Assembly: GCA_003233455.1 (NCBI GenBank)
Contig: QILQ01000043.1
Location: 442 to 64,441, forward strand
Direction of reading: 5' to 3'
Length of the DNA: 64,000 nt
Origin: Candidatus Zambryskiibacteriota bacterium
Lineage (GTDB): Bacteria > Patescibacteriota > Minisyncoccia > Phycocordibacterales > WO2-35-19
The notes under the pieces: model-generated
The model's input: only the letters and a program-made list of their open reading frames with translations
Database searches by the model: none
Told to the model about the DNA's origin: nothing
Part shown: piece by piece, positions 3,520-61,817 of the stretch
Layout: every line of letters starts with the position of its first letter
Position numbering within the stretch: position 1 is the first letter of the stretch
Made by a program: the position numbers and the translations under genes

Positions 3520-4980
3520 ATGAAAAATATAAAAATCATATTTTACGGCGGAGTTGGCAGTACTACTGGAGCGAATATAATGCTTGAATTTAATCAAAGG
3601 AAAATTTTGGTTGATTGCGGTATTTTGCAAGGTATGAAAGAAGATAAAAATTTTGAAGATTTTAAATATAATCCGGCAAGTATCGCTTTTCTTTTAATCA
3701 CTCATGCTCATATGGATCATATAGGTAAAATACCAAAATTAGTGAGAGAGGGTTTTAAAGGTAAAATAATTTCTACTGAAGAAACTATGGAATTGGCTCG
3801 CCCATTATTGGCAGACGCTTTAAAAGTATTAAAAATAAAACATCCAAATAAAATTCTTTTTGAAGAAGCCGATATAGAAAAAACTTTCTCTCTCTGGCAA
3901 GGTCAAAAATATGGTGAAAAAATTGAGCTTTTTGAAGATTGTTTTTTAGAAATGCAAAATGCCGGACATATTTTAGGTTCAGCTATTTTAAATGTTTCTT
4001 GCAAGGAGAATAATAAAATTATAAAAATAGCTTTTACCGGAGATTTGGGAAACTCGCCATCACCGCTTTTGCCGGACACGGAATTTCCTCAAAAAGTAGA
4101 TTATCTAGTAATGGAAAGCGTTTATGGAGATAGAAATCACGAAAATAAAAAAGAAAGAAGAGAAAAATTAAAACAAGCTATTTTGGAAGGTATAAAAAAA
4201 GATGGCACTATAATAATACCGGCTTTTTCTGTGGAGAGAACTCAAGTTTTGCTTTATGAGATAAATAATATGATTGAGGACAAAGAAATTCCAGAAGTGC
4301 CGGTATTTTTAGATTCTCCTTTAGCTATAAAAGTAACAGATATTTATAAAAAACACACTAAAGATTTTAAGGAATTAGTTAAAGAAGAAATAAAAGGAGG
4401 AGATGATATTTTTGATTTTCCAAATTTTCATATTGTCAGAACTGCAGAAGAATCAAAAGAGATAGAAAAAATAAAAGGAGCAAAAATAATTTTAGCTGGC
4501 TCAGGGATGTCAGAAGGAGGCAGGGTGGTTAACCATGAAGCTCATTATTTACCGGATCCTAAAGCGACTATTATAATGGTTGGTTATCAAGCGGTTGGTT
4601 CTTTGGGTAGGGTTATCCAAGATGGTAAAAAAGAAGTTGAAATAACTTCCCCAATCCCTTCTTACATTAAGAGGGAGCAGAAAAACATGCATATTGGTAG
4701 GCAGAAAATAAAAGTTAGAGCTACTATAAAAAATATTACCGGTTACTCATCTCATAAAGATTCGGACCATCTTTTAGAATTTGTTGAGAGGATAAATACT
4801 CCACTTTTCACTTCGCGTAGCCCTCTCCTAGATGCAGGAGAGGGAAAGAAAAAACTAAAACAAGTTTTTGTTATTATGGGAGAAGCGAAATCTTCCCTTT
4901 TTCTCACTCAACGCATTCGCGATTATCTTGATATTAATGCAGTATATCCAGAAGAGGAAAAAGAGTATAAATTAGATTAA
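3520..4980 (+). CDS. MBL-fold / beta-CASP family ribonuclease (RNA-metabolising metallo-beta-lactamase)
   Basis: HAHMDHIG (HxHxDH), downstream D/H motifs, C-terminal GYSSHKD and VIMGE (beta-CASP motifs); adjacent to rny. Confidence 0.6.
   Translation: MKNIKIIFYGGVGSTTGANIMLEFNQRKILVDCGILQGMKEDKNFEDFKYNPASIAFLLITHAHMDHIGKIPKLVREGFKGKIISTEETMELARPLLADALKVLKIKHPNKILFEEADIEKTFSLWQGQKYGEKIELFEDCFLEMQNAGHILGSAILNVSCKENNKIIKIAFTGDLGNSPSPLLPDTEFPQKVDYLVMESVYGDRNHENKKERREKLKQAILEGIKKDGTIIIPAFSVERTQVLLYEINNMIEDKEIPEVPVFLDSPLAIKVTDIYKKHTKDFKELVKEEIKGGDDIFDFPNFHIVRTAEESKEIEKIKGAKIILAGSGMSEGGRVVNHEAHYLPDPKATIIMVGYQAVGSLGRVIQDGKKEVEITSPIPSYIKREQKNMHIGRQKIKVRATIKNITGYSSHKDSDHLLEFVERINTPLFTSRSPLLDAGEGKKKLKQVFVIMGEAKSSLFLTQRIRDYLDINAVYPEEEKEYKLD
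4806..4846 (+). repeat. In-frame palindromic repeat (CGCGTAGCCCTCTCCTAGATGCAGGAGAGGGAAAG) inside the MBL RNase CDS, encoding SRSPLLDAGEGKK
   Basis: Same family and flanks (cttcgcgta...ggagaggg-aaagaaaaa) as intergenic copies at 22800 and 23745. Confidence 0.5.
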
Positions 4981-6562: not shown

Positions 6563-6752
6563 ATATTTTGCTGTAATTTCGCTCTATTTTAGACGAGTTG
6601 TAACTTTTTTCTCTTTATTTTTGGCTTTTTTAGGGAAATTAAGTTCATTTTAGTTAAAAATTCGGTATTTTTTACGAAATTACTTGATTTAATACTAATG
6701 TAAGTAATATACACCAATATATGTTTTTAAGCAAATTATTTTTTAGTAAAAG

Positions 6753-7358
6753 TTAGAGGATTTTGTCAACAATCCCGTATTTTTTAGCTTCGATAGAAGA
6801 CATAAAAAAATCACGGTCTACATCATTTTCTATTTTTTTGATTGGTTGTCCAGTATTTTCAGCCAACATTTTATTAAGATTTTCTTTAGTTTTTAAAATA
6901 TGTTTGGCAGTGATGGCAATATCCGTTGCTTGTCCTTCGGCACCACCTACAGGTTGGTGAATCATCACTTCCGCATTTTGAAGAATAAATCTTTTACCTT
7001 TAGCACCGGAAGACAAAACCATTGCAGCACCAGAAGCAGCAATACCAACACAATATGTAGAAACATCCGGTTTAATGAATTTCATGGTATCCACAATAGC
7101 GAGAGTGGAAGTGACTGAGCCACCAGGGGAATTTATGTAAAGAGAAATTTCTTTTTTAGAGTCTTCATTCTGTAAAAATAAAAGTTGGGCGATAATAAGA
7201 TTTGCCATATCATCCTCAATCTGGCCACTTAAAAATATAATCCTATCTTTTAAAAGTCTGGAATAGATATCATAAGCTCTCTCACCATTGTGAGATTTTT
7301 CAATAACAGTTGGAATTAATATTGAATTTTTAGTTGTATTTTTGTTTATATTTTTCAT
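6753..7358 (-). CDS. clpP: ATP-dependent Clp protease proteolytic subunit
   Basis: [10 protein letters not shown]...[11 protein letters not shown]...MIHQP catalytic triad blocks. Confidence 0.9.
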
Positions 7359-7438: not shown

Positions 7439-7476
7439 TCCCTCTCCTTAGTAAGGAGAGGGGAAGGGGTGAGGTT
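7439..7476. repeat. Palindromic repeat CCCTCTCCTTAGTAAGGAGAGGGG + GGGTGAGGTT
   Basis: Member of window-wide GGGTGAGG palindromic family; between clpP and tig. Confidence 0.6.
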
Positions 7477-8551: not shown

Positions 8552-8589
8552 GCTAGTTTAGCTTAAAACTCTTTTTGAAGCAAACCTCA

Positions 8590-8745
8590 CCCCTAATTTT
8601 TATCTTCTATAATAACTTCACCTAGCCCCTCTCCTACTTACCACCATCTCTATTATTTACCACCTCACCTCTCTCCTACCTACTATTTTACCACCTCACC
8701 CCTAGCCCCTCTCCTTAGTAAGGAGAGGGGAAGCGAGAAACTCAA
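8590..8745. repeat. Cluster of degenerate CACCTCACC / CCCCTCTCC repeats ending in a perfect palindrome CCCCTCTCCTTAGTAAGGAGAGGGG
   Basis: Four to five tandem degenerate units visible directly. Confidence 0.55.
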
Positions 8746-11139: not shown

Positions 11140-11164
11140 AAAATTAAATTAACCGATAAAATAC

Positions 11165-11205
11165 CCCCAGCCCCTCTCCTAAATGCAGGAGAGGGGAGAA
11201 ATAAA
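11165..11205. repeat. Palindromic repeat CCCCTCTCCTAAATGCAGGAGAGGGG
   Basis: Family member; in nusA/cyt b divergent intergenic region. Confidence 0.6.
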
Positions 11206-11321
11206 AAATCCGCTTTCAAGCGGAGTATCTTTCTTTCAGTATTGCGTCCATTGTATACTTAAGATAATAAATAGTCAAGAAATTCGCTTGTAATAAAGTT
11301 TTTTTATTAAAATGTATTATA

Positions 11322-18858: not shown

Positions 18859-19242
18859 TTGAAAGAAAACCAATTAAAAAAAGAAAAAAAGACGACTAAA
18901 ACAACAAAGACTAAGGCAAAGAAAAAAGAAGAGCCTATTTCTAAATTGCGTATTAGAGTAATGGCTTATGAATATAAAGTGCTTGACCTTTCGGTTAAGC
19001 AAATTATAGATACGGCTATGCGTTATGATGCCAAAGTGGTTGGACCGGTGCCTTTGCCTACGGAAATTAAAAAGTATACGGTCAATCGTTCTCCTTTCGT
19101 TTATAAAGATGCTCGGGAGCAATTTGAGATGCGAGTGCATCGCAGATTGATAGATATTATCAATCCTTCTCCAAAAATAATGGATTCTTTAACCAATCTT
19201 TCACTTCCATCTGGAGTGAATATTGAGGTCAAGATAGTATAG
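18859..19242 (+). CDS. rpsJ: 30S ribosomal protein S10 with Lys-rich N-terminal extension
   Basis: IRVMAYEYKVLD...PLPTE S10 core. Confidence 0.9.
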   Translation: MKENQLKKEKKTTKTTKTKAKKKEEPISKLRIRVMAYEYKVLDLSVKQIIDTAMRYDAKVVGPVPLPTEIKKYTVNRSPFVYKDAREQFEMRVHRRLIDIINPSPKIMDSLTNLSLPSGVNIEVKIV

Positions 19243-19253
19243 TTACAAAAAAC

Positions 19254-19568
19254 TTGACAAGATATATACAACATATATACTTCTTATATATGGATACTGT
19301 GATATTTAAAATAGATAAAAAACTTAAACAAGCTGCCCAAAAACAAGCTAAAAAGGGAGGTTTTTCTTTATCTGACTATTATAGATCAGTTACTATTCCT
19401 TTGGCGGAAGGGAAAAGTAGGATTGGTTTAATTCGGGAGGAACAGTTAAATGCAAAAACTGTTCGTGAACTTTTAAAGATTTCAAAAGATATTAAAGAAG
19501 GTAAAAATCTATCTCCTGTTTTTGATAATGTAGAAGATGCTATAAATTATTTAAAATGTGCTAAATGA
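19254..19568 (+). CDS. RelB/DinJ-family antitoxin
   Basis: Paralogous to 34590-34853 and 63330-63635 (shared KDIKEGKN...F.NVEDAINYL C-terminus). Confidence 0.55.
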   Translation: MTRYIQHIYFLYMDTVIFKIDKKLKQAAQKQAKKGGFSLSDYYRSVTIPLAEGKSRIGLIREEQLNAKTVRELLKISKDIKEGKNLSPVFDNVEDAINYLKCAK

Positions 19569-19621
19569 GAATAGATTATCACAGAAGATTTGTTAAAAAT
19601 TTTATTAAATTATTTATATAA
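19565..19621 (+). pseudogene. Truncated YafQ/RelE-type toxin remnant (MRIDYHRRFVKNFIKLFI*)
   Basis: Resembles N-terminus of 63640-63900 toxin; stops after 18 codons. Confidence 0.3.
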
Positions 19622-19684
19622 TAATTTAATAATTCAATAACAAAAAATAATCACATCATCCATAATAATTTTATTTTTTAAGAT

Positions 19685-19735
19685 ACTATACAAATGGGAC
19701 GATCGTCCCGTTTGTATAGTCTGTTTTTTATTTTG
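19685..19735 (+). terminator. Perfect 36-bp palindrome ACTATACAAATGGGACGATCGTCCCGTTTGTATAGT followed by T-tract; second copy at 41672-41706
   Basis: GC core stem + U-run; both copies adjacent to TA cassettes in r-protein operons. Confidence 0.5.
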
Positions 19736-19828
19736 AAAATATTGACAAAAAATTTGCAAAAAATTGATAATTCTGTTAATCTATCAAAAGCCAAACGGCG
19801 TTTTTTATTGAGGATATGAATTAAAGAT

Positions 19829-20461
19829 ATGAAATTTACATTAGCTAAAAAAGTAAATATGACCCAGATTTTTGGGGAAGATGGTAAAGTGACGGCAGTG
19901 ACTGTTTTGAATGTGGAGCCTATAGTGGTTTCTCAAATTAAAACTAAAGAAAAAGATGGTTATAGTGCGGTACAGGTAGGCACTGGTTCTCGCAGAGAAA
20001 AAAACACTCCAAAACCTGTTTTAGGACATTTGAAGGATGTTCCTATGCCTGAAGGAAAGAAGGGAAGTTTCGCTGTTCTTAAAGAATTTAGATTAGAGGA
20101 TACTTCTTCTTTAAACAAAGGGGATAATATGGAGGTAGATACTTTTACTATTGGCGATAAAATTGCTGTTTCTGCTATATCAAAAGGTAAAGGTTTTCAA
20201 GGAGTGGTTAAAAGACATGGCTTCCATGGTGGTCCTCGTTCTCATGGACAAAAACATTCTGAAAGAGAGCCGGGTTCTATTGGTGCCACCGGACCTCAGA
20301 GAGTTTTTAAAGGAGTAAAAATGGCTGGTCGGATGGGAAGCGATAAGGTAACGGTGAAAAATTTAAAAGTGGTTGCCATAGATAAAGAAAACAATATAAT
20401 GATGGTCTCCGGTGCGGTGCCGGGCAGAAGAGGAACACTGGTTGAAATTCGCTCAGTTTGA
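19829..20461 (+). CDS. rplC: 50S ribosomal protein L3
   Basis: L3 family blocks (KGKGFQGVVKRHGF). Confidence 0.9.
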   Translation: MKFTLAKKVNMTQIFGEDGKVTAVTVLNVEPIVVSQIKTKEKDGYSAVQVGTGSRREKNTPKPVLGHLKDVPMPEGKKGSFAVLKEFRLEDTSSLNKGDNMEVDTFTIGDKIAVSAISKGKGFQGVVKRHGFHGGPRSHGQKHSEREPGSIGATGPQRVFKGVKMAGRMGSDKVTVKNLKVVAIDKENNIMMVSGAVPGRRGTLVEIRSV

Positions 20462-20516
20462 AAATTTTAAAATTGATACATTTAATGAAAATTCTAAATT
20501 GAAAATTTAAATCATC

Positions 20517-21176
20517 ATGGAAGCGACAATATATAATCAAACAGGTAAAGAAGAAGGAAAAATAAAACTTCCGGAAAAAGTTTTCGGTTTATCTTGGAAT
20601 ACAGATTTGGTGCATCAAGTAGCCACTTCTATGATGGCAAACAAAAGAATTCCTATCGCTCATACAAAAAACAGAGGTGAAGTTTCTGGTGGTGGCAAAA
20701 AACCATGGAGACAAAAAGGCACCGGCAGAGCTAGACATGGTTCAAGAAGAAGTCCTATTTGGGTTGGTGGTGGAGTTACTCATGGACCCAGAAATGACAA
20801 AGACTATTCAAAAAAAATCAATAAAAAAATGAAAGTCAAAGCTCTTTTTACGGTGCTTTCTCGCAAATTCAAGGAGGGAGAAGTGATTTTTATTGATAAT
20901 ATTTCTTTGAAAGCTCCAAAAACAAAAGAAGCGAAAAATATAATAAATTCTTTATCAAAAATAAAAGAATTAAGTTCTATCACCAGAAGAAAAAATGCCG
21001 CCTTTATCGCTCTTCAACAAAAAAATGAAAATATTTTAAAAAGTTTTAGTAATTTTGGTAATTTAGAAATCGGTCAATTGAAGGATTTGAATGTTTTAGA
21101 CCTTTTGCAATACAGATATCTTGTTGTGACTGATCCGGAAAAATCAATAACAATTCTTTCTTCCAAGATAAAATAA
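20517..21176 (+). CDS. rplD: 50S ribosomal protein L4
   Basis: WRQKGTGRARHGS motif. Confidence 0.9.
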   Translation: MEATIYNQTGKEEGKIKLPEKVFGLSWNTDLVHQVATSMMANKRIPIAHTKNRGEVSGGGKKPWRQKGTGRARHGSRRSPIWVGGGVTHGPRNDKDYSKKINKKMKVKALFTVLSRKFKEGEVIFIDNISLKAPKTKEAKNIINSLSKIKELSSITRRKNAAFIALQQKNENILKSFSNFGNLEIGQLKDLNVLDLLQYRYLVVTDPEKSITILSSKIK

Positions 21177-21181
21177 AAATT

Positions 21182-21469
21182 ATGACAATAGATTTAAAAG
21201 CAAAATACGCGAATATTTTATTAAGACCCCGTATTACCGAGAAGGCTAATTCTATGGCAGATAAAAATATTCACACTTTTGAAATTGCGTCAAAGGCGAC
21301 CAAAAAACAGGTTATTGAAACAATTAAAGCTTTTTATAAAATTTCTCCCGTGAAAGTGAATATCGTTAAAAATCCCGCCAAGAAAGTTTTTATAAAAGGA
21401 AAGAAAGGTGTTAAAACAGGAGTGAAAAAAGCTTATGTCTATTTAAAAGAAGGAGATAAGATAGAATAG
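21182..21469 (+). CDS. rplW: 50S ribosomal protein L23
   Basis: LLRPRITEKA; synteny rplD-rplW-rplB. Confidence 0.9.
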   Translation: MTIDLKAKYANILLRPRITEKANSMADKNIHTFEIASKATKKQVIETIKAFYKISPVKVNIVKNPAKKVFIKGKKGVKTGVKKAYVYLKEGDKIE

Positions 21470-21483
21470 TTCAAAATAAAAAT

Positions 21484-22332
21484 ATGGCAATAAAAAATTA
21501 CAAACCAACATCAAAATCAAGGAGACATATGTCTATTGTCTCTTATAAATCTATTTTAACTAAAAACAAACCTCTAAAAGCTCTCACTTCCGGCGTGAAG
21601 AGATCTGTCGGACGAAATAATGCGGGCAGGATAACAACGCGTCATAAAGGTGGCGGTCATAAGAGATTATTTAGAGAGATTGATTTTAAATACAACAAAA
21701 TCAATATTCCTTATAAAATAACTTCTGTGGAATATGACCCAAATCGCACCGGGTTTATCGGTATTGCTGTTTATGAAGATGGCGAGAAAAGATATATTCT
21801 TTTGCCAAAAAATATTAAAGTTGGCGAAAAACTTTTAACAGGAGAAAAGGCGGAAATAAAACAAGGTAATAGATTACCGTTAAAGAGTATACCGACTGGC
21901 GCTTTTGTTTATAATGTGGAACTAAAACCTCTTGGGGGAGCGAGAATTGCTCGTTCAGCCGGCAATTTTGTTCAAGTATTGGCTAAGGATGCTGGTTATG
22001 TTGATTTAAAAATGCCATCTAGTGAAATACGCAAAGTGAAAGAAACTTGTTGGGCCAGTATTGGCACGGTTTCAAATGAAGAAAAAAGACTTGAAAATTA
22101 TGGAAAGGCCGGAAAAAGCAGGTGGAAAGGTATTCGTCCAACAGTACGAGGTACCGCAATGAATCCGGTTGACCATCCGCATGGTGGCGGTGAAGGTAGG
22201 CAAGGCAGAGGCAGGAAACGAGCGGTTTCTAAATGGGGTAAACCAACCGGTAAAGGTCAAAAATCGCGACGCACTAAAAAATATTCTGATAAATTTATTA
22301 TTAGCAGAAGAAAAGTAGGCAAGAAGAGATAA
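21484..22332 (+). CDS. rplB: 50S ribosomal protein L2
   Basis: GTAMNPVDHPHGGGEG motif. Confidence 0.95.
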   Translation: MAIKNYKPTSKSRRHMSIVSYKSILTKNKPLKALTSGVKRSVGRNNAGRITTRHKGGGHKRLFREIDFKYNKINIPYKITSVEYDPNRTGFIGIAVYEDGEKRYILLPKNIKVGEKLLTGEKAEIKQGNRLPLKSIPTGAFVYNVELKPLGGARIARSAGNFVQVLAKDAGYVDLKMPSSEIRKVKETCWASIGTVSNEEKRLENYGKAGKSRWKGIRPTVRGTAMNPVDHPHGGGEGRQGRGRKRAVSKWGKPTGKGQKSRRTKKYSDKFIISRRKVGKKR

Positions 22333-22334
22333 TT

Positions 22335-22742
22335 ATGAATAATATAAAAATTTCACTGATTGATATTGATAAAAGAAAAAAGCTGAATATAAGATCCGGA
22401 GATACAGCGCGTGTTACTCAAAAAATAATTGAAAAAGATAAAAAGACCGGCAAGCCAAAAACCAGATTGCAGGATTTTGAAGGATTATGTTTGGCAGTCA
22501 AGCACGGTAAAGAAGCCGGAGGCACTTTTACTTTGAGAAAAGTGGCGTCAGGGGTGGGAGTTGAAAGAATTTTTCCAATTTATTCTCCAATGATAGAAAA
22601 AATAAAAATAATTAAACGCTCCAAAGTTCGTCGCGCCAAACTTTATCATATTCGTGATAAAGCGGCTAAAGAAATTCGTCGTCAAATGAGAAATGTCAGA
22701 GCTTTACCTAAAGTGGAAGAAATTGAACTTGACACAAAATAA
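22335..22742 (+). CDS. rplS: 50S ribosomal protein L19 (unusual position directly after rplB)
   Basis: RSGDTARV...FEGLCLAVKHG...GVGVERIFPIYSP...VRRAKLYHIR matches L19. Confidence 0.8.
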   Translation: MNNIKISLIDIDKRKKLNIRSGDTARVTQKIIEKDKKTGKPKTRLQDFEGLCLAVKHGKEAGGTFTLRKVASGVGVERIFPIYSPMIEKIKIIKRSKVRRAKLYHIRDKAAKEIRRQMRNVRALPKVEEIELDTK

Positions 22743-22841
22743 CTCCTTCACTCATTCATTCACTCACTCTTCATTTTTGGTCTACTAATGGGAACACCTC
22801 ACCCCTCGCTTCGCGTAGGAGAGGGGAAAGAAAAACTTAAC
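22728..22841. repeat. 114-bp direct repeat copy 1 (rplS 3' end + GGGTGAGG palindromic element); copy 2 at 23668-23784
   Basis: Near-identical (3-bp indel) copies flank the HD-domain gene. Confidence 0.75.
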
Positions 22842-22893: not shown

Positions 22894-23541
22894 TTAAAGC
22901 ACTTTTAGATTTTCTGCAATTTTTAACATTTCAGAAATACTCTTGTCTTCTAATGATTCTTTCACATTATTCCAAAGAGCAAGATTTGTTTTTGCCCAAT
23001 TCAAATATTTTGTTTTTGCTAAATCAGTATAAAAATAAATTCCTTCGTCCAGTAATTTATTTTGTTCAGAAGTAATTTTATTTGCTAGCTTTTGTATATC
23101 TATTTTATTTTGTTTGATATAATTATTTGTAAATAAAATTGGTGTAATTGGTAAAGACTTGAACAAAGTATCGGCATCACTTAATGATTTTCCTTCATTT
23201 GAAATATTTTGATTTCTAATTGCAGTATGAGCTTCCATAATTATATTTTCAATTTTGATGATTTCCTCATCAGAATATCCGCTTTTAATCAAAATATTAT
23301 TACGGTAACTATTCGCTTCTTCAGGTTCAGAATTAACTTTTACAATATAATTCAAATCATGAACAAGTGCCGCTGACTCAACAAAAAATAAATTGGCGTT
23401 GATTGATTTAGCAAAAACAATTGCTTTATTTTTTACAAAAACAATATGGTGCCATCCATGAAAAAGTAGTTTTTTACTTTTTTTTAAGTATACCTTTTCA
23501 AGGTTTAAAGTTAAATTATTTATCTTGCTTTTTTGTTTCAT
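22894..23541 (-). CDS. HD-domain phosphohydrolase-like protein
   Basis: HGWHH...VHD...SDAD matches H..H/HD/D motif set of the HD superfamily. Confidence 0.55.
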   Translation of the reverse strand: MKQKSKINNLTLNLEKVYLKKSKKLLFHGWHHIVFVKNKAIVFAKSINANLFFVESAALVHDLNYIVKVNSEPEEANSYRNNILIKSGYSDEEIIKIENIIMEAHTAIRNQNISNEGKSLSDADTLFKSLPITPILFTNNYIKQNKIDIQKLANKITSEQNKLLDEGIYFYTDLAKTKYLNWAKTNLALWNNVKESLEDKSISEMLKIAENLKVL

Positions 23542-23667
23542 AACCCAGGTGCACCAATCTTTTGTTATATATTATACAAACTCAATATATAATTATTACA
23601 TAAACTGTAAATAATCATACTATCAAGATTATTTTACTGATTTTTATAAAATTATGCAACAAAAATA

Positions 23668-23784
23668 CTTGACACAAAATAACTCCTTCACTCATTCATT
23701 CACTCACTCTTCATTTTTGGTCTACTAATGGGAACACCTCACCCCTCGCTTCGCGTATAAGGAGAGGGGAAAGAAAAACTTAAC
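23668..23784. repeat. Direct repeat copy 2 (see 22728-22841)
   Basis: Direct comparison. Confidence 0.75.
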
Positions 23785-24710: not shown

Positions 24711-24787
24711 GGTGGTAGTAGCTCAGCTAGTAGAGCGCCGCTCTGTGGAAGCGGAGGTCGTGGGGGCAGAACCCATCTACCACCCAT
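24711..24787 (+). tRNA. tRNA-His (anticodon GTG) with G-1:C73; atypical T-loop, no encoded CCA
   Basis: G-1 GTGGTAG acceptor pairs CTACCAC+C73; anticodon stem CCGCT/AGCGG, loop CT-GTG-GA. Confidence 0.55.
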
Positions 24788-30260: not shown

Positions 30261-30325
30261 CCTCACCTCAACCCCTCTCCTTAATAAGGAGAGGGCACAC
30301 GAAGTGAGGGGTGAGGTGAAAGTGT
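30261..30325. repeat. Compound palindromic repeat CCTCACCTCAACCCCTCTCCTTAATAAGGAGAGGG...GGGGTGAGGTG
   Basis: Nested inverted repeats; between convergent rplK and dcd. Confidence 0.6.
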
Positions 30326-36947: not shown

Positions 36948-37289
36948 ATGTCACGATCACTTAAAAAAGGCCCTTATGTTGATGAAAGGGTGCTCAAAAA
37001 AATAGAAGGCAAAAAACCTGCAGATACTGCGGTTATTAAGACTTGGTCTAGAGCTTGTGCTATTGCTCCTGAGATGATTGGTTTCACTTTTGGAGTGCAT
37101 AATGGCAGGGAACATATTGAAGTTTTTGTCACAGAAGATATGGTTGGTCATAAACTTGGAGAATTTTCTTTGACTCGCAAATTTATAAAACATGGAGGTA
37201 AGATGCAAAAAGAACTTGAAGCCAAGAAAAAAGAAGATGAAATAAAAGCGGCTAAATCCGCTAAAGCGACATCTGAATCAAAAAAATAA
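36948..37289 (+). CDS. rpsS: 30S ribosomal protein S19 with Lys-rich C-terminal tail
   Basis: SLKKGPYVD...[28 protein letters not shown]. Confidence 0.85.
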
Positions 37290-37405
37290 GTTAAACATAC
37301 AAATATGCAAATGATGCAAATAATACAAATGAATGCTAATCCATATCCAAATTATATTCGTAGTTATTCGTTGATTAGTATAATTAGTAGATTGGTATAT
37401 TAAAA
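37290..37405. repeat. ~115-bp intergenic element copy 1, starts at rpsS stop codon (copy 2 at 39752-39865)
   Basis: Near-identical (1 mismatch) to copy 2; contains conserved 32-codon [35 protein letters not shown]. Confidence 0.7.
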
Positions 37406-37443
37406 CGGCACAATTAAATAGCTATAGACAATCTCCCAGAAAA

Positions 37444-37797
37444 GTGAGATTAGTAGCCGATACCATTAGAGGTATATCTACCAAAGAAGCTAGAATTAAA
37501 TTGGATTTTATAACTAAACGAGCCGCTGGTCCGTTAGGTAAACTTCTAAACTCCGCTATTGCTAACGCGAAAAATTTAGGTGCTGATATGGATAATCTTT
37601 GGATTAAAACTATTACTGTTAATGGTGGCAGAATATTATACAGACGCAGACCAGTTTCTCACGGCTCGGCTCATCCTATTCGTAAACGCACTTCGCGTAT
37701 TACTGTTGTTTTGGCGGAAAAACAAAAAACCGCAACTCAAAAAACCAAATTAGAAGCTGAAAAATTCGCGCTTAATCAACCAACAAGTAAAAAATAA
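37444..37797 (+). CDS. rplV: 50S ribosomal protein L22 (true start probably ~35 nt upstream at a non-ATG codon)
   Basis: Upstream in-frame sequence encodes ...SYRQSPRKVRLVADTIRG, the conserved L22 N-terminus, with no ATG. Confidence 0.8.
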   Translation: MRLVADTIRGISTKEARIKLDFITKRAAGPLGKLLNSAIANAKNLGADMDNLWIKTITVNGGRILYRRRPVSHGSAHPIRKRTSRITVVLAEKQKTATQKTKLEAEKFALNQPTSKK

Positions 37798-37801
37798 AAT
37801 T

Positions 37802-38461
37802 ATGACTCACACAGTACACCCATATGCTCATAGATTAGGTATTATTCGCGATTGGAAATCGCGTTGGTTTGAGGTGAAATCCAAATATAAAGAAAATTTA
37901 AAAAAGGATGTCCTAATTTTTGAATATCTTAAAAAGCGTCTAAAAGGATTTTTTGTAAATTCTATTGAAATTGAAAGAAGTGTTAAAACTTTTAGAATTA
38001 TTATTGAAACCTCTCGTCCCGGACTTATTATTGGCAGAAGTGGCGAAGGTATGAATAAACTTAGAGAAGACATTATTCATTTTATAAAGAAACGCGATTT
38101 AAATTCTAGAGAAGAATTAAAAATAGATGTGAAAGAGGTAAAATCACCGGAATCAAATGCTATGATAGTAGCTCAAATGATAGCTGAAGGGCTTGAAAAA
38201 AGAATGCCTTTCAGAAGGGTAATGAAAACTATGATTGAAAAAGCTTTTGCTAATCGTGATGTAAAAGGGGTTAAAATTTCTCTTTCTGGTATGCTTGGTG
38301 GTTCAAAAATGGCTAGATTAGAGTCTAAAAAGATTGGTCGAATTCCTTTGCAAACATTACGTGCCGATATTGATTATGCAAAATATGAAGCTCTTCAACC
38401 ACTTGGAAAAATCGGCATAAAAGTTTGGATTTATAAAGGTGAGATTTTTGATAAAAAATAA
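37802..38461 (+). CDS. rpsC: 30S ribosomal protein S3
   Basis: KH domain RPGLIIGRSG. Confidence 0.9.
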   Translation: MTHTVHPYAHRLGIIRDWKSRWFEVKSKYKENLKKDVLIFEYLKKRLKGFFVNSIEIERSVKTFRIIIETSRPGLIIGRSGEGMNKLREDIIHFIKKRDLNSREELKIDVKEVKSPESNAMIVAQMIAEGLEKRMPFRRVMKTMIEKAFANRDVKGVKISLSGMLGGSKMARLESKKIGRIPLQTLRADIDYAKYEALQPLGKIGIKVWIYKGEIFDKK

Positions 38462-38473
38462 TTCTTAATTATT

Positions 38474-38893
38474 ATGTTATTTCCTAAAAAAATTAAACAT
38501 AGAAAGTGGCAAACTATGCGCAAGAATCCTAAAAAAGTCGGACCGGCAACTCGTGGCATCAAAGTATCTTTTGGGTCGTATGGTCTTAAAGCAATGACTC
38601 CTGGCAGAATTACTTCCAATCAGATTGAATCTGCCAGAAAAGCCATAACTAAATCTATAAGTAAAACTGGTAGAGTTTGGATACGCATTTTTCCTGATAT
38701 GCCTTTTACCAAAAAACCGGCGGAAGTGAAGATGGGTAAAGGTAAGGGAGATTTAGAGGGATATCACGCTAAAGTTTTATCTGGACAAATTATATTTGAA
38801 GTTGATGGAGCCTCAAATTCTTTATCTATTGAGTCTTTGCGTAAAGGTGGCACCAAGATGCCAATAAAAACTAGAATTGTGGCTCGCAATTAA
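38474..38893 (+). CDS. rplP: 50S ribosomal protein L16
   Basis: KHRKWQ...GRI family signature. Confidence 0.9.
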
Positions 38894-38906
38894 AATATTT
38901 AATTAA

Positions 38907-39089
38907 ATGAAAAAAGGATTATTAAAAAAGAATAAAGATGATTTAATGAAAGAATTAGACGAAAAACGTCTTTCTTTGCGCGATATTAGATTTGGTATTG
39001 CTGGAAGTAAAAGTAAAAATGTTAAAGAACAAAAAACAATAAAAAAAGATATTGCCAGAATAATGACTGAATTAAGAATTATGAATTAA
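38907..39089 (+). CDS. rpmC: 50S ribosomal protein L29
   Basis: Size, position, ELRxxxxxELxxxLxxLRF pattern. Confidence 0.8.
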   Translation: MKKGLLKKNKDDLMKELDEKRLSLRDIRFGIAGSKSKNVKEQKTIKKDIARIMTELRIMN

Positions 39090-39094
39090 GAATT

Positions 39095-39367
39095 ATGAAT
39101 GAAAAAAAAGAAAAAAAGAATATAAATAAGGAAAAGAAAACAAACGGTAAAATTTTAAGCGGAGTAGTAATATCGGCTAAAATGCGAGATACTTGTACTG
39201 TTTTGGTTAGCAGATTTATAAAGCATAAAAAATACAGAAAATATTATAAAGTAAGCAAAAAATATAAAGCGCATGATGCTGGCAATATTAAAAAAGTGAG
39301 AGATAAAGTTAAGATAATGGAATGTCGCCCCATTTCTAAAGATAAACATTTTATGATAATAAATTAA
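39095..39367 (+). CDS. rpsQ: 30S ribosomal protein S17
   Basis: GVVISAKMRDTCTVLV...KYKAHD pattern. Confidence 0.85.
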   Translation: MNEKKEKKNINKEKKTNGKILSGVVISAKMRDTCTVLVSRFIKHKKYRKYYKVSKKYKAHDAGNIKKVRDKVKIMECRPISKDKHFMIIN

Positions 39368-39373
39368 AAAATT

Positions 39374-39751
39374 ATGATTCAGCCCCAAACAATAATAAAA
39401 ATAGCGGATAATTCAGGTGCCAAATTGGGGCGAGTATTTAAGGTATTGGGTAGTTCTAAAAAAAGATACGCCAGAGTGGGAGAGTTGGTTATCTTTTCTG
39501 TTCAAAAGGCAGAGCCCCGCAAAGAAATTAAAAAGAAAGCGGTGCTTTTGGGTTTAATTGTTCGCCAAAAAGCTCCACTTAGAAGAAAAGACGGTTCTTA
39601 TATTCGTTTTGATGAAAATGCGGCTGTTGTGGTAGAGCGAAAAAAAGGCGAGATTATTCCCAAAGCCGGAAGAATATTTGGTCCGATACCGAGAGAAATC
39701 GCTGAAGCGGGATATCAAGCTATTGTTTCTTTGGCACCTGAAATAATTTAG
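39374..39751 (+). CDS. rplN: 50S ribosomal protein L14
   Basis: MIQPQTIIKIADNSGAK. Confidence 0.9.
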   Translation: MIQPQTIIKIADNSGAKLGRVFKVLGSSKKRYARVGELVIFSVQKAEPRKEIKKKAVLLGLIVRQKAPLRRKDGSYIRFDENAAVVVERKKGEIIPKAGRIFGPIPREIAEAGYQAIVSLAPEII

Positions 39752-39865
39752 TTAAACATACAAATATGCAAATGATGCAAATGATACAAATGAATGCTAA
39801 TCCATATCCAAATTATATTCGTAGTTATTCGTTGATTAGTATAATTAGTAGATTGGTATATTAAA
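39752..39865. repeat. ~115-bp element copy 2, starts at rplN stop codon
   Basis: See 37290-37405. Confidence 0.7.
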
Positions 39866-39868
39866 TTT

Positions 39869-40093
39869 ATGAAAATCAAAAAAGGAGACAAAGTAAAAAT
39901 AATAACAGGTAAAGACAAAGGTAAAACAGGTGTTGTTTTAAAAGCGTATCCTAAAGATTTTTTAGTATTGGTTGAAAATATAAACAAGAAAAAAATTCAT
40001 CAAAAACCGAGAAAACAAGGAGAAAAAGGTAAAATAATAGAACAATCAGCACCGATACATGTATCAAATGTTAAAAAGATTAAGGATAAGTAA
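39869..40093 (+). CDS. rplX: 50S ribosomal protein L24 (short form)
   Basis: [25 protein letters not shown] motif. Confidence 0.75.
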
Positions 40094-40096
40094 AAT

Positions 40097-40145
40097 AATA
40101 ACCCCACCTCAACCCCTTCCCAAAGAGGAGGGGCGAAAAGAGGAG
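40097..40145. repeat. Degenerate CCCCACCTCAACCCCTTCC...GAGGAGGGG palindromic repeat
   Basis: Family member between rplX and rplE. Confidence 0.45.
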
Positions 40146-40167
40146 AATAAAGATAACAAAAATCAAA

Positions 40168-40716
40168 ATGAAATTAATGAAAGAAAAAACAAAAGAAGCT
40201 TTTAAAGAACTCAAAAAACAATTGGGTTTAAAAAATATTATGCAATCTCCGAAAATTGTTAAAGTGGTTATCAATTCCGGAGTTGGTTCTCTTAGCGATA
40301 AAAAGAAAATAGATATGATAATAGACAGACTGGCTAAAATAACCGGTCAAAAAGCCATTAAAAGAGGAGCTAAGAAATCGGTTGCTTCTTTTAAATTAAG
40401 AGAAGGAGATATTGTTGGAGTTCAAATTACTTTACGAGGAGAAAAGATGTGGAGTTTTTTAGACCGTCTTTTTAGTATCGCTTTGCCTCGGACTAAAGAT
40501 TTTAGAGGTATTTCTCTTAAAGCAATAGATGAAATGGGTAATTATACTCTGGCTATCAGAGAACATACTGTATTTCCGGAAACTTCAGATGAAGATTTAA
40601 AGGATATTTTTAGTTTTGCCGTTACTATTGTCACAAATTTAAAAGGCAAAAATGAAGCTTTGGAATTTTTTAAGGCTCTTAGTTTTCCTTTTAAAAAAGC
40701 TACGACCAAAAAATAA
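40168..40716 (+). CDS. rplE: 50S ribosomal protein L5
   Basis: L5 family blocks. Confidence 0.9.
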   Translation: MKLMKEKTKEAFKELKKQLGLKNIMQSPKIVKVVINSGVGSLSDKKKIDMIIDRLAKITGQKAIKRGAKKSVASFKLREGDIVGVQITLRGEKMWSFLDRLFSIALPRTKDFRGISLKAIDEMGNYTLAIREHTVFPETSDEDLKDIFSFAVTIVTNLKGKNEALEFFKALSFPFKKATTKK

Positions 40717-41499: not shown

Positions 41500-41668
41500 G
41501 CAATTTTTTACGGTCGTGTTATAAACCAGATTGTTGAGGCAGGAATGACCGAGGTAAGGCTGTGTGAGTATCAGGATATACATATGGTAGCCGGACTTTT
41601 CAGAAAAGCTCTGCTCTAGCCTAAACGAGGTTGCAATCGAAAGACGCAACCCCTTCTTTTTTATTTTA
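41500..41668 (+). ncRNA. Candidate small RNA / structured 3' region ending in a rho-independent terminator (GGTTGC..GCAACC + U-tract)
   Basis: 170-nt non-coding segment with internal complementarity; identity not established. Confidence 0.2.
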
Positions 41669-41671
41669 AAT

Positions 41672-41706
41672 ACTATACAAACGGGACGATCGTCCCAAGT
41701 GTGTAG
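41672..41706. terminator. Second copy of TATACAAACGGGACGATCGTCCC palindrome (bidirectional terminator candidate, comFC / hicBA)
   Basis: Matches 19685-19720 palindrome. Confidence 0.45.
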
Positions 41707-41723
41707 TGTTAAATATTTGAATT

Positions 41724-47931: not shown

Positions 47932-48959
47932 ATGGATGATTTAAATAAACTTATAGAACTTATGATTAAAGAAGGAGCTTCAGATTTGCATATTTCTGAA
48001 GGTAGAAATCCTTATATTAGGGTCTCCGGTCAATTAACACCTCTTTTAAAATATCAAAAATTTACTAAAATTTTGATAGAAAATATTGCCAACAAAATTA
48101 TCCCCGAATCTAAAAAAATCATTTTCAAATCTTCTCAAAGTGCTGATTTTGCTTATAGCCATAATGGCAACAGATTTAGGGTTCATGTTTTTTTGGACCA
48201 GCAAAGAATTTGTATGACTTTTCGTTATATTCCCAAAAAAATACCGTCGCTTACCGAATTAAATTTGCCAAATGATTTGGAAAATTTTGCCAGATTAAAA
48301 TCGGGTTTCTTTTTAGTGGTAGGTCCGACCGGACATGGTAAATCAACCACTCTCGCTTCTTTAATAGAGACTATATAATTACCATAGAGGATCCAATAGA
48401 ATATTTGTTTACTGCCAAGAAATCTATTATTCATCAAAGAGAAATTGGGTTGGATACACCAAATTTCGCTTCCGCTTTGCATGATTCTTTTAGAGCTGAC
48501 GCGAATGTTATTATGGTTGGCGAAATGAGAGATATTGATACTATAGCTACCGCGGTTTCTGCCGCGGAAACTGGTCATCTAGTGCTTTCTACTCTGCATA
48601 CTAATAATGCTGCTCAAACAGTTGATCGTATTATAGATTCATTTTCTGCCAGTCAACAAAACCAAGTCCGTATTCAATTAGCTGCTTCTTTATCTGGCAT
48701 CTTTTCTCAAAGACTTATTCCCAAAATATCAGGTGGTCTCATTCCGGCTTATGAGCTTTTAGTGAATAATGTGGCTGTTTCAAATCTTATTAGGGACAAG
48801 AGAACTCACGAATTAAATACTATAATTGAAACTGGGTCGCAAGAAGGTATGATTGATTTCAATAGATGTTTGGTGGAAAAAGTAAATAAAGGCGAAATCA
48901 GTATTGAAAATGCTTATCTTTATTCCACTAATCCGCGTTCTCTGGAAAAAATGTTATAA
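47932..48959 (+). pseudogene. pilT: Twitching-motility ATPase PilT split into two ORFs (47932-48378 and 48405-48959) by an apparent 2-bp insertion near 48366-48372
   Basis: Walker A VGPTGHGKSTT in ORF1; ITIEDPIEY...REIGLDT...HLVLSTLHTN in shifted frame; removing 2 nt gives LIDYIITIEDPIE. Confidence 0.7.
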
Positions 48960-57902: not shown

Positions 57903-59990
<2,088 letters not shown>

Positions 59991-60328: not shown

Positions 60329-60372
60329 TTTCCCCTCTCCTGCATTTAGGAGAGGGGCTAGGGGTGAGGTTA
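60329..60372. repeat. Palindromic repeat CCCCTCTCCTGCATTTAGGAGAGGGG + GGGGTGAGGTT
   Basis: Family member between gatC and gatA. Confidence 0.6.
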
Positions 60373-60377
60373 ATAAA

Positions 60378-61817
60378 ATGGATATTTCAAAACTTACAAT
60401 CAAAGAAGCCAGAAAGTTACTTGATACTAAAAAAATTTCTGTAAAAGAACTTGTTGAAGAATATCTAAAAAATATTGAAGATAAAAATAAAGAATTAAAT
60501 GTATTTCTGGAAGTTTATGATGATGTTTTAAAACAAGCGGAAGAAGCTCAAAAAATTATAGATGAAGGTGGAGCTTTAGAGTTGACAGGTATTCCTCTGG
60601 CTGTGAAAGATAATATTTTAATAAAAGGCAGAAAAGCGAGCGCCGCTTCAAAAATGCTTCAAAATTATCAAGCTACTTATACTGCTACCGCTGTTCAAAA
60701 ATTGATTGACCAAAAAGCGGTATTTATGGGCAGGACAAATATGGATGAATTTGCTATGGGTAGCTCAACCGAAAATTCTAGTTTTGGGGTAACTAAAAAT
60801 CCTTATGATATTTCTCGAGTGGCGGGTGGTTCTTCTGGTGGCTCGGCGACAGCAGTAGCCTCAAATATGGCTTTGGGGGCTCTGGGTTCTGATACTGGAG
60901 GTTCAATTAGAGAGCCAGCCAGTTTTTGTGGAGTGGTTGGATTGAAACCAACATATGGTAGCGTTTCTCGTTATGGTCTGATGGCGATGGGTTCTTCTTT
61001 GGATGTTATCGGTCCTATCAGTAAGACAGTAACTGATAATGAAATAATTTTTAACGCTATTAAAGGCAGAGATAAAATGGACAGCACTTCTATACCTCAC
61101 TCGGACTTCGTCTCGACCTCTCCTAATTTAGGAGAGGTAAAAAAAATCAAGATTGGAGTTCCTTATCATATTTTGAATCAGGAAGGAATATCAAATGAAG
61201 TTAAGAAAAATTTTGATACTTCTGTTGAAAGAATGAAAAAATTAGGGTTTGAAATCAAAGATATTAAATTGCCGAATATGGATAAATCTTTGGCTGTTTA
61301 TTATATAATTATGCCAGCCGAAGTTTCTTCCAATATGGCAAGGTATGATGGTATTAAATATGGTTTATCTTTGGAGGCCGAAAATTTATTGGATGTCTAT
61401 AAGAAAACTAGAGGTGAAGGTTTTGGTAGAGAGGTCAGGAGAAGGATTATTTTAGGTGCTTATATTCTTTCTTCCGGTTATTATGACGCCTATTACAGCA
61501 AAGCGATGATGGTTAGAAAAATAATACAAGATGAATTTAAAGAAGCTTTTAAAGGAGTGGATGTAATATTTACCCCAACTACTCCCTCTCCCGCTTGGAA
61601 AATAGGCGAAAAAACAAGTCCTTTAGAAAACTATTTGGCTGATATTTTTACGGTAACTGCGAATATTGCGGGAATTCCGGCTATCTCTTTACCATCCGGA
61701 TATGTTAAAATTAGTGATAATGAATCGGAACTGCCTCTCGGCGTTCAACTTATGTCCTCGCATAAAAATGAAGATGTGTTATTTAAAATTGGCAAAAAGT
61801 TTTTAAATGAAAATTGA
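60378..61817 (+). CDS. gatA: Asp/Glu-tRNA amidotransferase subunit A (amidase)
   Basis: Amidase signature GGSSGGSA, Ser-cisSer-Lys triad region. Confidence 0.9.
   Translation: MDISKLTIKEARKLLDTKKISVKELVEEYLKNIEDKNKELNVFLEVYDDVLKQAEEAQKIIDEGGALELTGIPLAVKDNILIKGRKASAASKMLQNYQATYTATAVQKLIDQKAVFMGRTNMDEFAMGSSTENSSFGVTKNPYDISRVAGGSSGGSATAVASNMALGALGSDTGGSIREPASFCGVVGLKPTYGSVSRYGLMAMGSSLDVIGPISKTVTDNEIIFNAIKGRDKMDSTSIPHSDFVSTSPNLGEVKKIKIGVPYHILNQEGISNEVKKNFDTSVERMKKLGFEIKDIKLPNMDKSLAVYYIIMPAEVSSNMARYDGIKYGLSLEAENLLDVYKKTRGEGFGREVRRRIILGAYILSSGYYDAYYSKAMMVRKIIQDEFKEAFKGVDVIFTPTTPSPAWKIGEKTSPLENYLADIFTVTANIAGIPAISLPSGYVKISDNESELPLGVQLMSSHKNEDVLFKIGKKFLNEN

Follow-up and report, generated by a model that had tools for sequence, protein, structure and literature searches.

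Short GC-rich palindromic repeats in spacers and, in frame, in protein-coding genes of a Zambryskibacteria-like clade of Patescibacteria

We analyzed a 64,000-nt stretch of Candidatus Zambryskiibacteriota bacterium DNA (assembly GCA_003233455.1, contig QILQ01000043.1, positions 442 to 64,441 of the forward strand; hereafter the window), in which a gene for a beta-CASP metallo-beta-lactamase (MBL) RNase carries a GC-rich palindrome within its coding sequence. The palindrome belongs to a genuine repeat family that is common to genes and spacers, keeps the frame in its genic copies, and presents the same unit at different sites and in different genes. With a probability of roughly 0.8, we regard this family as a selfish mobile palindromic element, genic copies of which survive only where the frame is kept, no stop codon arises and the location is a loop. 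The window has a GC content of 32%, and its genes, including ribosomal-protein, type IV pilus and tRNA-synthetase genes, are typical of a small Patescibacteria genome.

Results

The palindrome within the RNase gene

The RNase gene contains two copies of the element, at positions that we call site a and site b:

3520..4980, plus strand: host gene, beta-CASP MBL RNase, TTHA0252/CPSF73-like, 486 aa, assigned from its open reading frame (ORF), Pfam matches and a structure match
4798..4854 (approximate), plus strand: site-b copy, encoding T427-K445
4821..4844, plus strand: perfect hairpin core of the site-b copy, CCCTCTCCT / AGATGC / AGGAGAGGG, 9-bp arms and 6-nt loop
4645..4680, plus strand: second, decayed in-frame copy at site a, ACTTCCCCAAT followed by CCCTTCTTA-CAT-TAAGAGGG (4656-4675)

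At site b, the hairpin arms occupy 4821-4829 (CCCTCTCCT) and 4836-4844 (AGGAGAGGG), and the ORF remains open through them, giving a peptide that contains RINTPLFTSRSPLLDAGEGKKKLKQ. The hairpin is preceded by a left block (4798-4808), which has decayed to ACTCCACTTTT from the consensus ACCTCACCCCT, and by the linker CACTTCGCGTAG (4809-4820), and it is followed by an A-rich tail (4845-4854). Its RNA fold has a predicted energy of -17.3 kcal/mol (z = -2.6). A sequence-only reading of the window had reported a palindrome in frame inside this gene, and both the sequence that it quoted and the open frame were confirmed. Its length of 41 bp needs correction, since the quoted string has 34 nt, of which only 24 nt (9+6+9) are perfectly palindromic; the repeat itself is present, but as a larger unit, extending over the left block, linker, hairpin and tail. 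The placement between two beta-CASP motifs was also right: the insert lies between H412 of motif B (SSHKD) and M453 at the motif C position (IMGE).

Pfam matches of the RNase comprise Lactamase_B, Beta-Casp and RMMBL, the last being truncated and ending at residue 426, just ahead of the insert. MBL motifs 1-4 and beta-CASP motifs A and B are present, and the gene looks functional because its catalytic residues are invariant (H62, H64, D66, H67, H150, D175 and H412 in 101 orthologues). The best solved relative is TTHA0252 (TM-score 0.84/0.94), which is without the site-a and site-b segments and with which the sequence alignment ends at residue 422. Motif C, assigned by position within a ..V(H/M)GE strand, has Met453 (window 4876-4878) instead of His; this Met is invariant in the 101 close orthologues, and ..MGE occupies the position in all 74 parsed orthologues from GTDB. 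The motif C His is a zinc ligand, H400 in TTHA0252 and H418 in CPSF-73 (numbering partly from PDB mutant names), and the placement of the insert was judged against H380 and H400 of TTHA0252. By this positional assignment, a Met here appears unusual for an RNA-type beta-CASP enzyme. An identical protein is encoded on a JGI metagenome contig (3300020233, Ga0212224_1000125) and on an NCBI contig, and its closest named relatives come from metagenome-assembled Candidatus Zambryskibacteria / Paceibacterota genomes.

Site b is a derived insertion in a predicted surface loop

Relatives compared with the window are labeled L for loci and P for proteins (e.g., L002, P0034). When loop length was counted from the motif B H-x-D to the strand before MGE, 66 of the 74 Paceibacteria species orthologues from GTDB had a loop of 16-20 residues, versus 34 in the window, and longer versions were confined to close relatives. 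Among 118 close orthologues (59-100% identity), 56 have a short loop of the KVAPKKV or KxNESKKLTKV type and 62 carry inserts, including TPLLAKERGE, PPLDQGREG, PQPPLTTRGGAG, PPYIKGG and others, which are the peptides that palindromes with a pyrimidine arm and a purine arm encode. The empty alleles of L009 and L080 read AAT GAA TCA AAA AAA CTC; in filled alleles the unit lies between TCA/TCG and the A-tract, and different subfamilies occupy exactly that point in different genomes. The net gain of the window relative to the empty alleles is 15 aa (45 nt), and orthologues without the repeat are also without the peptide. These comparisons show the site-b segment to be a derived insertion.

An AlphaFold2 model of the RNase, built with 101 orthologues, reached a mean predicted local distance difference test (pLDDT) score of 88.3 and a predicted TM-score (pTM) of 0.89. 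Values of pLDDT below 50 were found only at residues 387-391 (site a) and at 430-434 and 437-440 (site b), all of which are coil. Site b is a coil between the helix 415-426 and the strand 448-452, and site a enlarges a beta-hairpin turn between the strands 372-376 and 394-398. The insert is thus predicted to occupy a surface loop compatible with the fold, and the low-confidence coil of the model is a favorable outcome of the loop check that the sequence-only reading had proposed.

A family of hairpin repeats in the window

The family is far above chance in the window. With at most one mismatch, the core 9-mer has 23 matches versus 5.8 expected, a number reached in 0 of 100 shuffles; GGGTGAGG has nine matches versus 0.45 expected, and the linker CTTCGCGT has four versus 0.36 expected, three of which directly adjoin the core. 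Perfect hairpins with a C-rich pyrimidine 5' arm number seven in the window and zero in 100 first-order Markov simulations. Five of them are intergenic (7440, 8706, 11171, 30273 and 60332) and two lie in ORFs (4821 in the RNase gene and 61116 in gatA). The intergenic copies are as follows:

7440..7474, minus strand: copy in the tig-clpP spacer, hairpin 7440-7462 and GGGGTGAGG 7466-7474
8585..8733, plus strand: cluster of solo CCTCACCCC blocks (8585, 8663, 8694), a half copy (8627) and a full hairpin (8706-8730)
11163..11207, plus strand: copy upstream of nusA, with the loop AAATGC that is also the loop of the L002 RNase copy
22797..22841, plus strand: half copy CCTCACCCCTCGCTTCGCGT-AGGAGAGGGGAAAGAAAAACTTAAC, with linker and tail common to the RNase copy
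23737..23784, plus strand: second, identical half copy, within a 116-bp direct repeat
30261..30316, minus strand: most complete intergenic copy, the nested palindrome ACCTCACCTCAAC-hairpin-CACACGAAGTGAGGGGTGAGG (-34.8 kcal/mol, z = -5.6)
60332..60369, minus strand: copy filling the gatC-gatA spacer, with GGGGTGAGG 8 nt before the gatA ATG

The full unit consists of ACCTCACCCC(T), an optional linker (CGCTTCGCGTAG or AGC), the hairpin and usually an A/G-rich tail. Alignment of copies from the window and its relatives gave the consensus ACCTCACCCCT, CGCTTCGCGTAG or AGC, CCCTCTCCT-loop-AGGAGAGGGG and an A/G-rich tail, in which the 5' arm of the hairpin is a C-rich pyrimidine run (CCCCTCTCCTT) and the 3' arm the matching purine run (AAGGAGAGGGG). 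Units are approximately 25-65 bp long (8-20 residues), and some carry the inverted left block GGGGTGAGG on their right, which makes them nested palindromes. In 76 hairpins from the window and related loci, the left block lies on one side, and an A-run of at least four lies on the other side in 40; such a run on both sides was found in 0 of the 76 (background rate, 0.14 per side). The unit therefore has a polarity. Immediately 5' of the stem, the long-linker subfamily has GTAG|CCCTCTCCT, and the others have CTAG, CCAG, CCAA or CCGA. The likeness between the flanks of the RNase palindrome and the intergenic copies, which had been noticed from the sequence, extends to the linker, hairpin, loop and tail: at site b, the linker CACTTCGCGTAG and the tail AAAGAAAAAACTAA agree with those of the half copies (22797-22841 and 23737-23784), and the loop AGATGC is one base off the AAATGC loops at 11171 and 60332.

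None of the intergenic copies in the window splits a gene, and a search of the window against Rfam at gathering thresholds matched only tRNAs, with no family match for the hairpins. A role as intrinsic (Rho-independent) terminators was rejected, as the hairpins precede A/G-rich tracts and not a U-tract, and copies occur in ORFs and upstream of genes.

Several observations were made at these copies. The GGGGTGAGG block at 60361-60380, 8 nt upstream of the gatA ATG, stands at the position expected of a ribosome-binding site, and the purine arm (AAGGAG) and pyrimidine arm (CTCCTT) of the hairpin resemble Shine-Dalgarno and anti-Shine-Dalgarno sequences. The 116-bp direct repeat (22727-22841 and 23667-23784) is identical in its two copies apart from a 3-nt indel, with a half element (CCTCACCCCTCGCTTCGCGT..AGGAGAGGGGAAAGAAAAACTTAAC) at the end of both; the first copy starts inside the end of the L19 gene, and the pair brackets a 215-aa gene (22894..23541, minus strand). 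The arrangement resembles a scar left by a recombination or insertion event in which the element took part. The bracketed gene has no Pfam match; it was considered as a transposase and set aside, its H..HD motifs looking by eye like those of an HD-type hydrolase.

Coding capacity of the unit

Stop codons need a pyrimidine followed by purines, so that under the genetic code no frame of an arm made up of pyrimidines or purines alone can contain TAA, TAG or TGA; stops can arise only through the loop and the linker. For the consensus of the long-linker unit, four of six frames are open, as GTAG closes one sense frame and a TGA within GGGGTGAGG closes one antisense frame. The arms encode Pro/Ser/Leu and then Gly/Glu/Arg/Lys, resulting in a flexible and hydrophilic peptide.

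Copies in other genes of the window and its relatives

Further copies inside coding sequences, for which the sequence-only reading had recommended a search, were found at site a of the RNase gene, in gatA and in additional genes of relatives. The site-a DNA of the window, ACTTCCCCAATCCCTTCTTACATTAAGAGGGAGCAG, encodes TSPIPSYIKREQ. Site-a copies are perfect palindromes in L002 (CCCCCTCTTA-CAT-TAAGAGGGGG) and L006 (CCCCCCCTTA-CAT-TAAGGGGGGG), with the pattern CCCCC(T/C)CTTA-CAT-TAAG(A/G)GGGGG; the basal site-a loop is about 17 aa shorter, and intergenic copies of this subfamily occur in L005, L006, L008 and L012. Compared with L002 and L006, the window shows C-to-T changes in its site-a arms and in the left block of site b. 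Site c, close to residue 165, is a third hot loop and holds an insert in 21 of the 118 close orthologues, and 83 of the 118 have an insert in at least one of the three RNase loops. The copy in gatA is listed below:

61094..61146, plus strand: in-frame copy in gatA (60378..61817), ACCTCACTCGGACTTCGTCTCG followed by ACCTCTCCTA-ATT-TAGGAGAGGT and A8

This copy encodes IPHSDFVSTSPNLGEVKK in a reading frame different from that of the RNase copy, is common to the closest GatA orthologues and folds with -18.5 kcal/mol (z = -3.9). The GatA loop DSTS..KIGVP that contains it exceeds the modal length by six residues, and in orthologues it is a hot spot where varied palindrome-type peptides occur, including ITSPLTPLLDAGEGK.

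The same unit recurs at different sites. Site b has TSPLASR(S/D)PLL.. in three cases (the window, L002 and L007); L007 bears it at site c as well, as do L091 and P0007, and in P0034, known from protein sequence only, it occupies site a. The exact 20-mer CCTCACCCCTCGCTTCGCGT, which spans left block and linker, matched 19 metagenome stretches, 18 of them AT-rich, and nearly all continue into the hairpin; its hosts include lysyl-tRNA synthetase (LysRS), TruB, a GT1-GtrA glycosyltransferase (in an interdomain linker) and the beta-CASP RNase at site c. In four genomes, an RsmE-like methyltransferase (Pfam) shows a separate hot loop ahead of SIFIG. At two unrelated loci, L002 and L088, the element is a composite that encloses a second palindrome (CCCGCCCG...CGGGCGGG); the nested palindrome reads CCCGCCCGAA(A/G)CG..GTTCAGGCGGGCGGG between GCGTAGCC and CCTCTCCT (L002, 2723-2753; L088, near 6708-6727, minus strand).

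On a simple neighbor-joining tree of 117 orthologues, the presence and type of the RNase inserts are scattered. Hairpins were present in loci of the close clade (the window, L002, L005-L009, L012, L015, L016 and L080) and in 0 of approximately 65 other Paceibacteria loci, and this sampling of loci shows them to be confined to one Zambryskibacteria-like clade. Perfect copies lie in ORFs of at least 120 codons in 18 of 47 cases (about one third), which would suggest that genic copies are under-represented, the loci being gene-dense. Every hairpin inside a long ORF leaves that ORF open and stop-free; here genes were called by ORF length and a genic copy was defined as a hairpin within an intact long ORF, so that a frame-breaking copy is not detectable.

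Copies in phage sequences

In IMG/VR, the hairpin together with the left block was found in 10 of the 11 matching stretches. One of these, IMGVR_UViG_3300048592_001291 (L106), is a 7.3-kb piece of phage DNA in which PHROGs identifies terminase, portal, minor head and neck genes; it has five copies of AACCTCACCCCC-NNN-CCCCTCTCCTTGGNAAGGAGAGGGG, all in one orientation:

1877-1931: first L106 copy
3722-3776: second L106 copy
4378-4432: third L106 copy
6577-6631: fourth L106 copy
7186-7240: fifth L106 copy

Three or four of these copies are in frame in structural genes on the opposite strand, e.g., as SPTPLSLPRRGDGGEVV in the minor head protein. A collection of cultured phages gave one weak match only. 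The left block is on the sense strand in the genic copies of bacterial loci and on the antisense strand in the phage copies; intergenic copies lie both ways, and no general orientation rule was observed across these three groups.

Discussion

A probable selfish palindrome and its proposed filtering by selection

In the scenario that we favor, short GC-rich palindromic repeats would have multiplied in a Zambryskibacteria-like clade of Paceibacteria (Patescibacteria, candidate phyla radiation, CPR), landing both between and within genes. A genic copy would be tolerated only if it is in frame, has a stop-free loop and disrupts nothing essential; the genic copies seen here all fit this description and lie in tolerant surface loops. 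The RNase copy entered 5' of the A-tract of Lys codons, at a point flanked by the helix that follows motif B and the strand with the motif C position; it would be translated as about 15 additional disordered residues and is now decaying by C-to-T changes. We infer that the element is selfish and neutral to slightly harmful, its copies being filtered by selection, and that the insert is translated.

As to how it moves, our leading guess is a mechanism that recognizes hairpins in single-stranded DNA and acts in trans, of the type of IS200/IS605 or of repetitive extragenic palindromic (REP) sequences with their REP-associated tyrosine transposases (RAYTs), because the unit has a polarity, a hairpin, a GTAG head in one subfamily and an insertion point beside an A-tract. 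Recombination or gene conversion would fit the nested composites, the 116-bp duplication and the different subfamilies at one point equally well.

Several points weigh against a selfish mobile element. No transposase, HUH, reverse transcriptase or integrase Pfam domain was detected in ORFs of at least 90 aa in the 64-kb window, and comparison of filled with empty alleles gave no convincing target-site duplication or exact element ends. L003 has just ACCTCACCCCT|AAAAAAA at site b, perhaps what a deletion left behind or else the first step of an insertion. Stems of genic copies are still perfect, and in gatA the two arms have changed in concert (A...T for C...G), possibly a sign that the hairpin itself is under selection. 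Finally, the same three loops are used over and over, which one old insertion, altered by gene conversion, may explain.

Alternative explanations

The last point belongs to a different account, in which the repeats spread by recombination, gene conversion or template switching at A-tract or CCTCACC microhomologies with no transposase, and the inserts in hot loops represent one old insertion repeatedly overwritten by family members. The occurrence of different subfamilies at exactly one point, 5' of the AAAAAA Lys codons, the composite and nested units, the perfect 116-bp duplication ending in a half element and the absence of a transposase from the window in the same Pfam scan are all consistent with it, and yeast GC clusters have been reported to merge, shuffle and mediate gene conversion (PMC8811140). 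However, a first arrival still needs explaining at three RNase loops, in six or more unrelated genes and in phage genes, and short-loop alleles are frequent even in close relatives. We consider this account unlikely.

More speculative, and in our view rather doubtful, is an undescribed hairpin- or single-strand-specific machinery, common to Paceibacteria and their phages, that prefers sites beside A-tracts. Such a preference would explain the repeatedly hit loop codons as well as the five same-orientation copies in the 7.3-kb phage fragment. If it exists, CPR proteins would be 'expandable' in a systematic way at their loops, and the elements would label pairs of phage and host and might have a part in conflicts between the two.

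It is also conceivable that the hairpins are functional cis-elements under selection, in genes as well as elsewhere, with the peptide as a by-product; a protein-binding or DNA-uptake-type signal, an mRNA stabilizer and a translational pause site are among the possible roles. The perfect 9-11 bp stems of genic copies and the compensatory pair change in gatA point in this direction, as do the recurrence of motif and left block in several phage contigs and the GGGGTGAGG block at the ribosome-binding-site position of the gatC-gatA spacer. Between the window and L002, identity at third codon positions, counted over codons whose residues are identical, is 0.81 in the site-b insert versus 0.66 in the rest of the gene, which with 16 codons is not significant. 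On the other hand, presence and absence are patchy among close orthologues, decayed copies are clear (site a and the left block of site b), copies are without a constant position or orientation relative to genes, and stem sequences vary freely between subfamilies. Together with the lack of an Rfam match and the A rather than U residues after the hairpin, which exclude an intrinsic terminator, these features make a conserved function improbable.

The insert could in principle be an untranslated intervening sequence, either bypassed by the ribosome or cut from the mRNA. One known system does bypass GC-rich palindromic clusters in genes of an AT-rich genome, the 'byps' of Magnusiomyces (PMC8811140), and insertions in rRNA genes are known in CPR genomes (PMC10221324). 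But bypassed or spliced elements need not keep the frame, so the open, stop-free long ORFs around genic hairpins count against both, within a screen limited to intact long ORFs; as an independent check, no intergenic copy of the window splits a gene. We hold this possibility to be very remote. Least credible of all is that the segment is a native, ancestral RNase loop whose palindromy and likeness to intergenic repeats are coincidental: loop length does vary in the family, and the closest orthologue, L002 (~80% identity), also has the segment, but the loop is short in 66 of the 74 species orthologues, its DNA agrees with that of intergenic copies from the linker through the hairpin and its loop to the tail, 100 simulated windows contained no such hairpin, and the unit also occurs in unrelated genes.

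Comparison with known repeat elements

REPs are extragenic by definition, have a conserved GT[AG]G head 5' of the hairpin, and are served by a cognate RAYT, a Y1 HUH transposase. Like REPs, bacterial interspersed mosaic elements (BIMEs) and REPINs, which are mobilized by RAYTs, the present family has hairpins of 20-40 nt, a high copy number and, in one subfamily, GTAG 5' of the stem, and a single-strand hairpin is a plausible substrate. Unlike REPs, about one third of its copies lie in ORFs and are thus not strictly extragenic, the 64-kb window has no RAYT gene, and copies are mostly single and not inverted pairs.

In behavior, the family matches the Rickettsia palindromic elements (RPEs) and the GC clusters of the yeast mitochondrial gene var1. 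RPE-1 to RPE-10 are approximately 100-150 bp long and encode 30-50 residues (Ogata et al. 2000, summarized in PMC10969869). In common with them, the repeats described here are multi-copy palindromes of a small genome that lie in spacers and, in frame, in unrelated housekeeping genes; the added peptide is apparently compatible with the fold, and the mover is not known for RPEs either. The term RPE-like, used in the sequence-only reading, therefore stands as an analogy of behavior and not as a claim of homology to Rickettsia families: at 25-65 bp versus 100-150 bp, the family is not an RPE by size, and homology to RPE-1 to RPE-10 is not expected. Moreover, the arms here are strictly pyrimidine and purine and GC-rich in a genome of 32% GC, the same loops are repeatedly hit across lineages, phage genes are affected too, and the hosts are Patescibacteria and not Rickettsiales.

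Yeast mitochondrial GC clusters, for which spread by recombination or gene conversion has been proposed, include in-frame insertions in var1 (PMC8811140). They too are short GC-rich palindromes of an AT-rich genome, mostly intergenic and also in frame, which merge and nest into composites, often have (T)AG beside the stem and are suspected to be mobile without a known enzyme. In contrast to those organellar clusters in one variable gene, the present copies are bacterial and lie in many essential genes; an AG target duplication has been proposed for yeast, whereas no clear duplication was seen here between filled and empty alleles. In the mitochondrial genome of Magnusiomyces capitatus, the ribosome passes over 'byp' elements (Lang et al. 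2014, cited in PMC8811140); like the present family they are GC-rich clusters that have entered the coding sequences of an AT-rich genome, but they do not need to keep the frame, and all genic copies detected here are in intact, stop-free ORFs. [quoted passage not shown] MITEs are typically longer than 100 bp, with terminal inverted repeats and target-site duplications, and neither hallmark is demonstrable here.

Our search of full-text literature on CPR, Patescibacteria or Parcubacteria for repeats that are palindromic, of MITE type or in frame retrieved only CRISPR-related or irrelevant papers and no description of such elements.

Other features of the window

A different perfect palindrome, GTTGCCAAGGACTGTCCTT-N16-AAGGACAGTCCTTGGCAAC with 19-bp arms (58610-58663), lies in frame in ligA (57915..59990, plus strand), within the adenylation domain of the NAD-dependent DNA ligase, where there is a 10-residue gap in the solved LigA 1b04; it has no second copy in the window. 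A further family of intergenic palindromes, ACTATACAAA(C/T)GGGACGA|TCGTCCC..., occurs at 19680-19725 and 41663-41716, has arms of 23-28 nt with no spacer, and is unrelated to the pyrimidine/purine hairpins.

A gene for a PilT-like T2SSE ATPase is split into two ORFs (47932..48378 and 48405..48959) by a frameshift or deletion near 48375, reading ...LIETI* and then ITIEDPIEYLF in another frame; no hairpin element is present at this break. The S10 ribosomal-protein cluster is interrupted (18859-22742 and 36948-40716): S10-L3-L4-L23-L2 and L19 are followed by about 14 kb of unrelated genes, including the HD-like gene, tRNAs, a histidine kinase, NusG, L11, dCTP deaminase, thymidylate genes and arginyl-tRNA synthetase, after which the cluster resumes with S19-L22-S3-L16-S17-L14-L5. 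A tRNA at 24712-24784 was found by Rfam (51.6 bits) and not by ARAGORN.

Implications

Patescibacteria have tiny, streamlined genomes and, to our knowledge, are not known for repeat invasions. If the repeats are selfish mobile elements, as we think probable, selfish DNA would shape proteins even in this group, the genes affected being those of the RNase, GatA, LysRS, TruB and RsmE. This would account for odd length variation and for low-complexity P/S/L...G/E/R/K loops in CPR protein families, and annotation and structure prediction of such segments would call for caution. The element might also serve as a marker linking uncultured phages to CPR hosts. Moreover, filled, empty and decayed alleles at the same loops in thousands of metagenome-assembled genomes would offer far denser comparative data than Rickettsia or yeast mitochondria on how such elements move and how proteins tolerate them.

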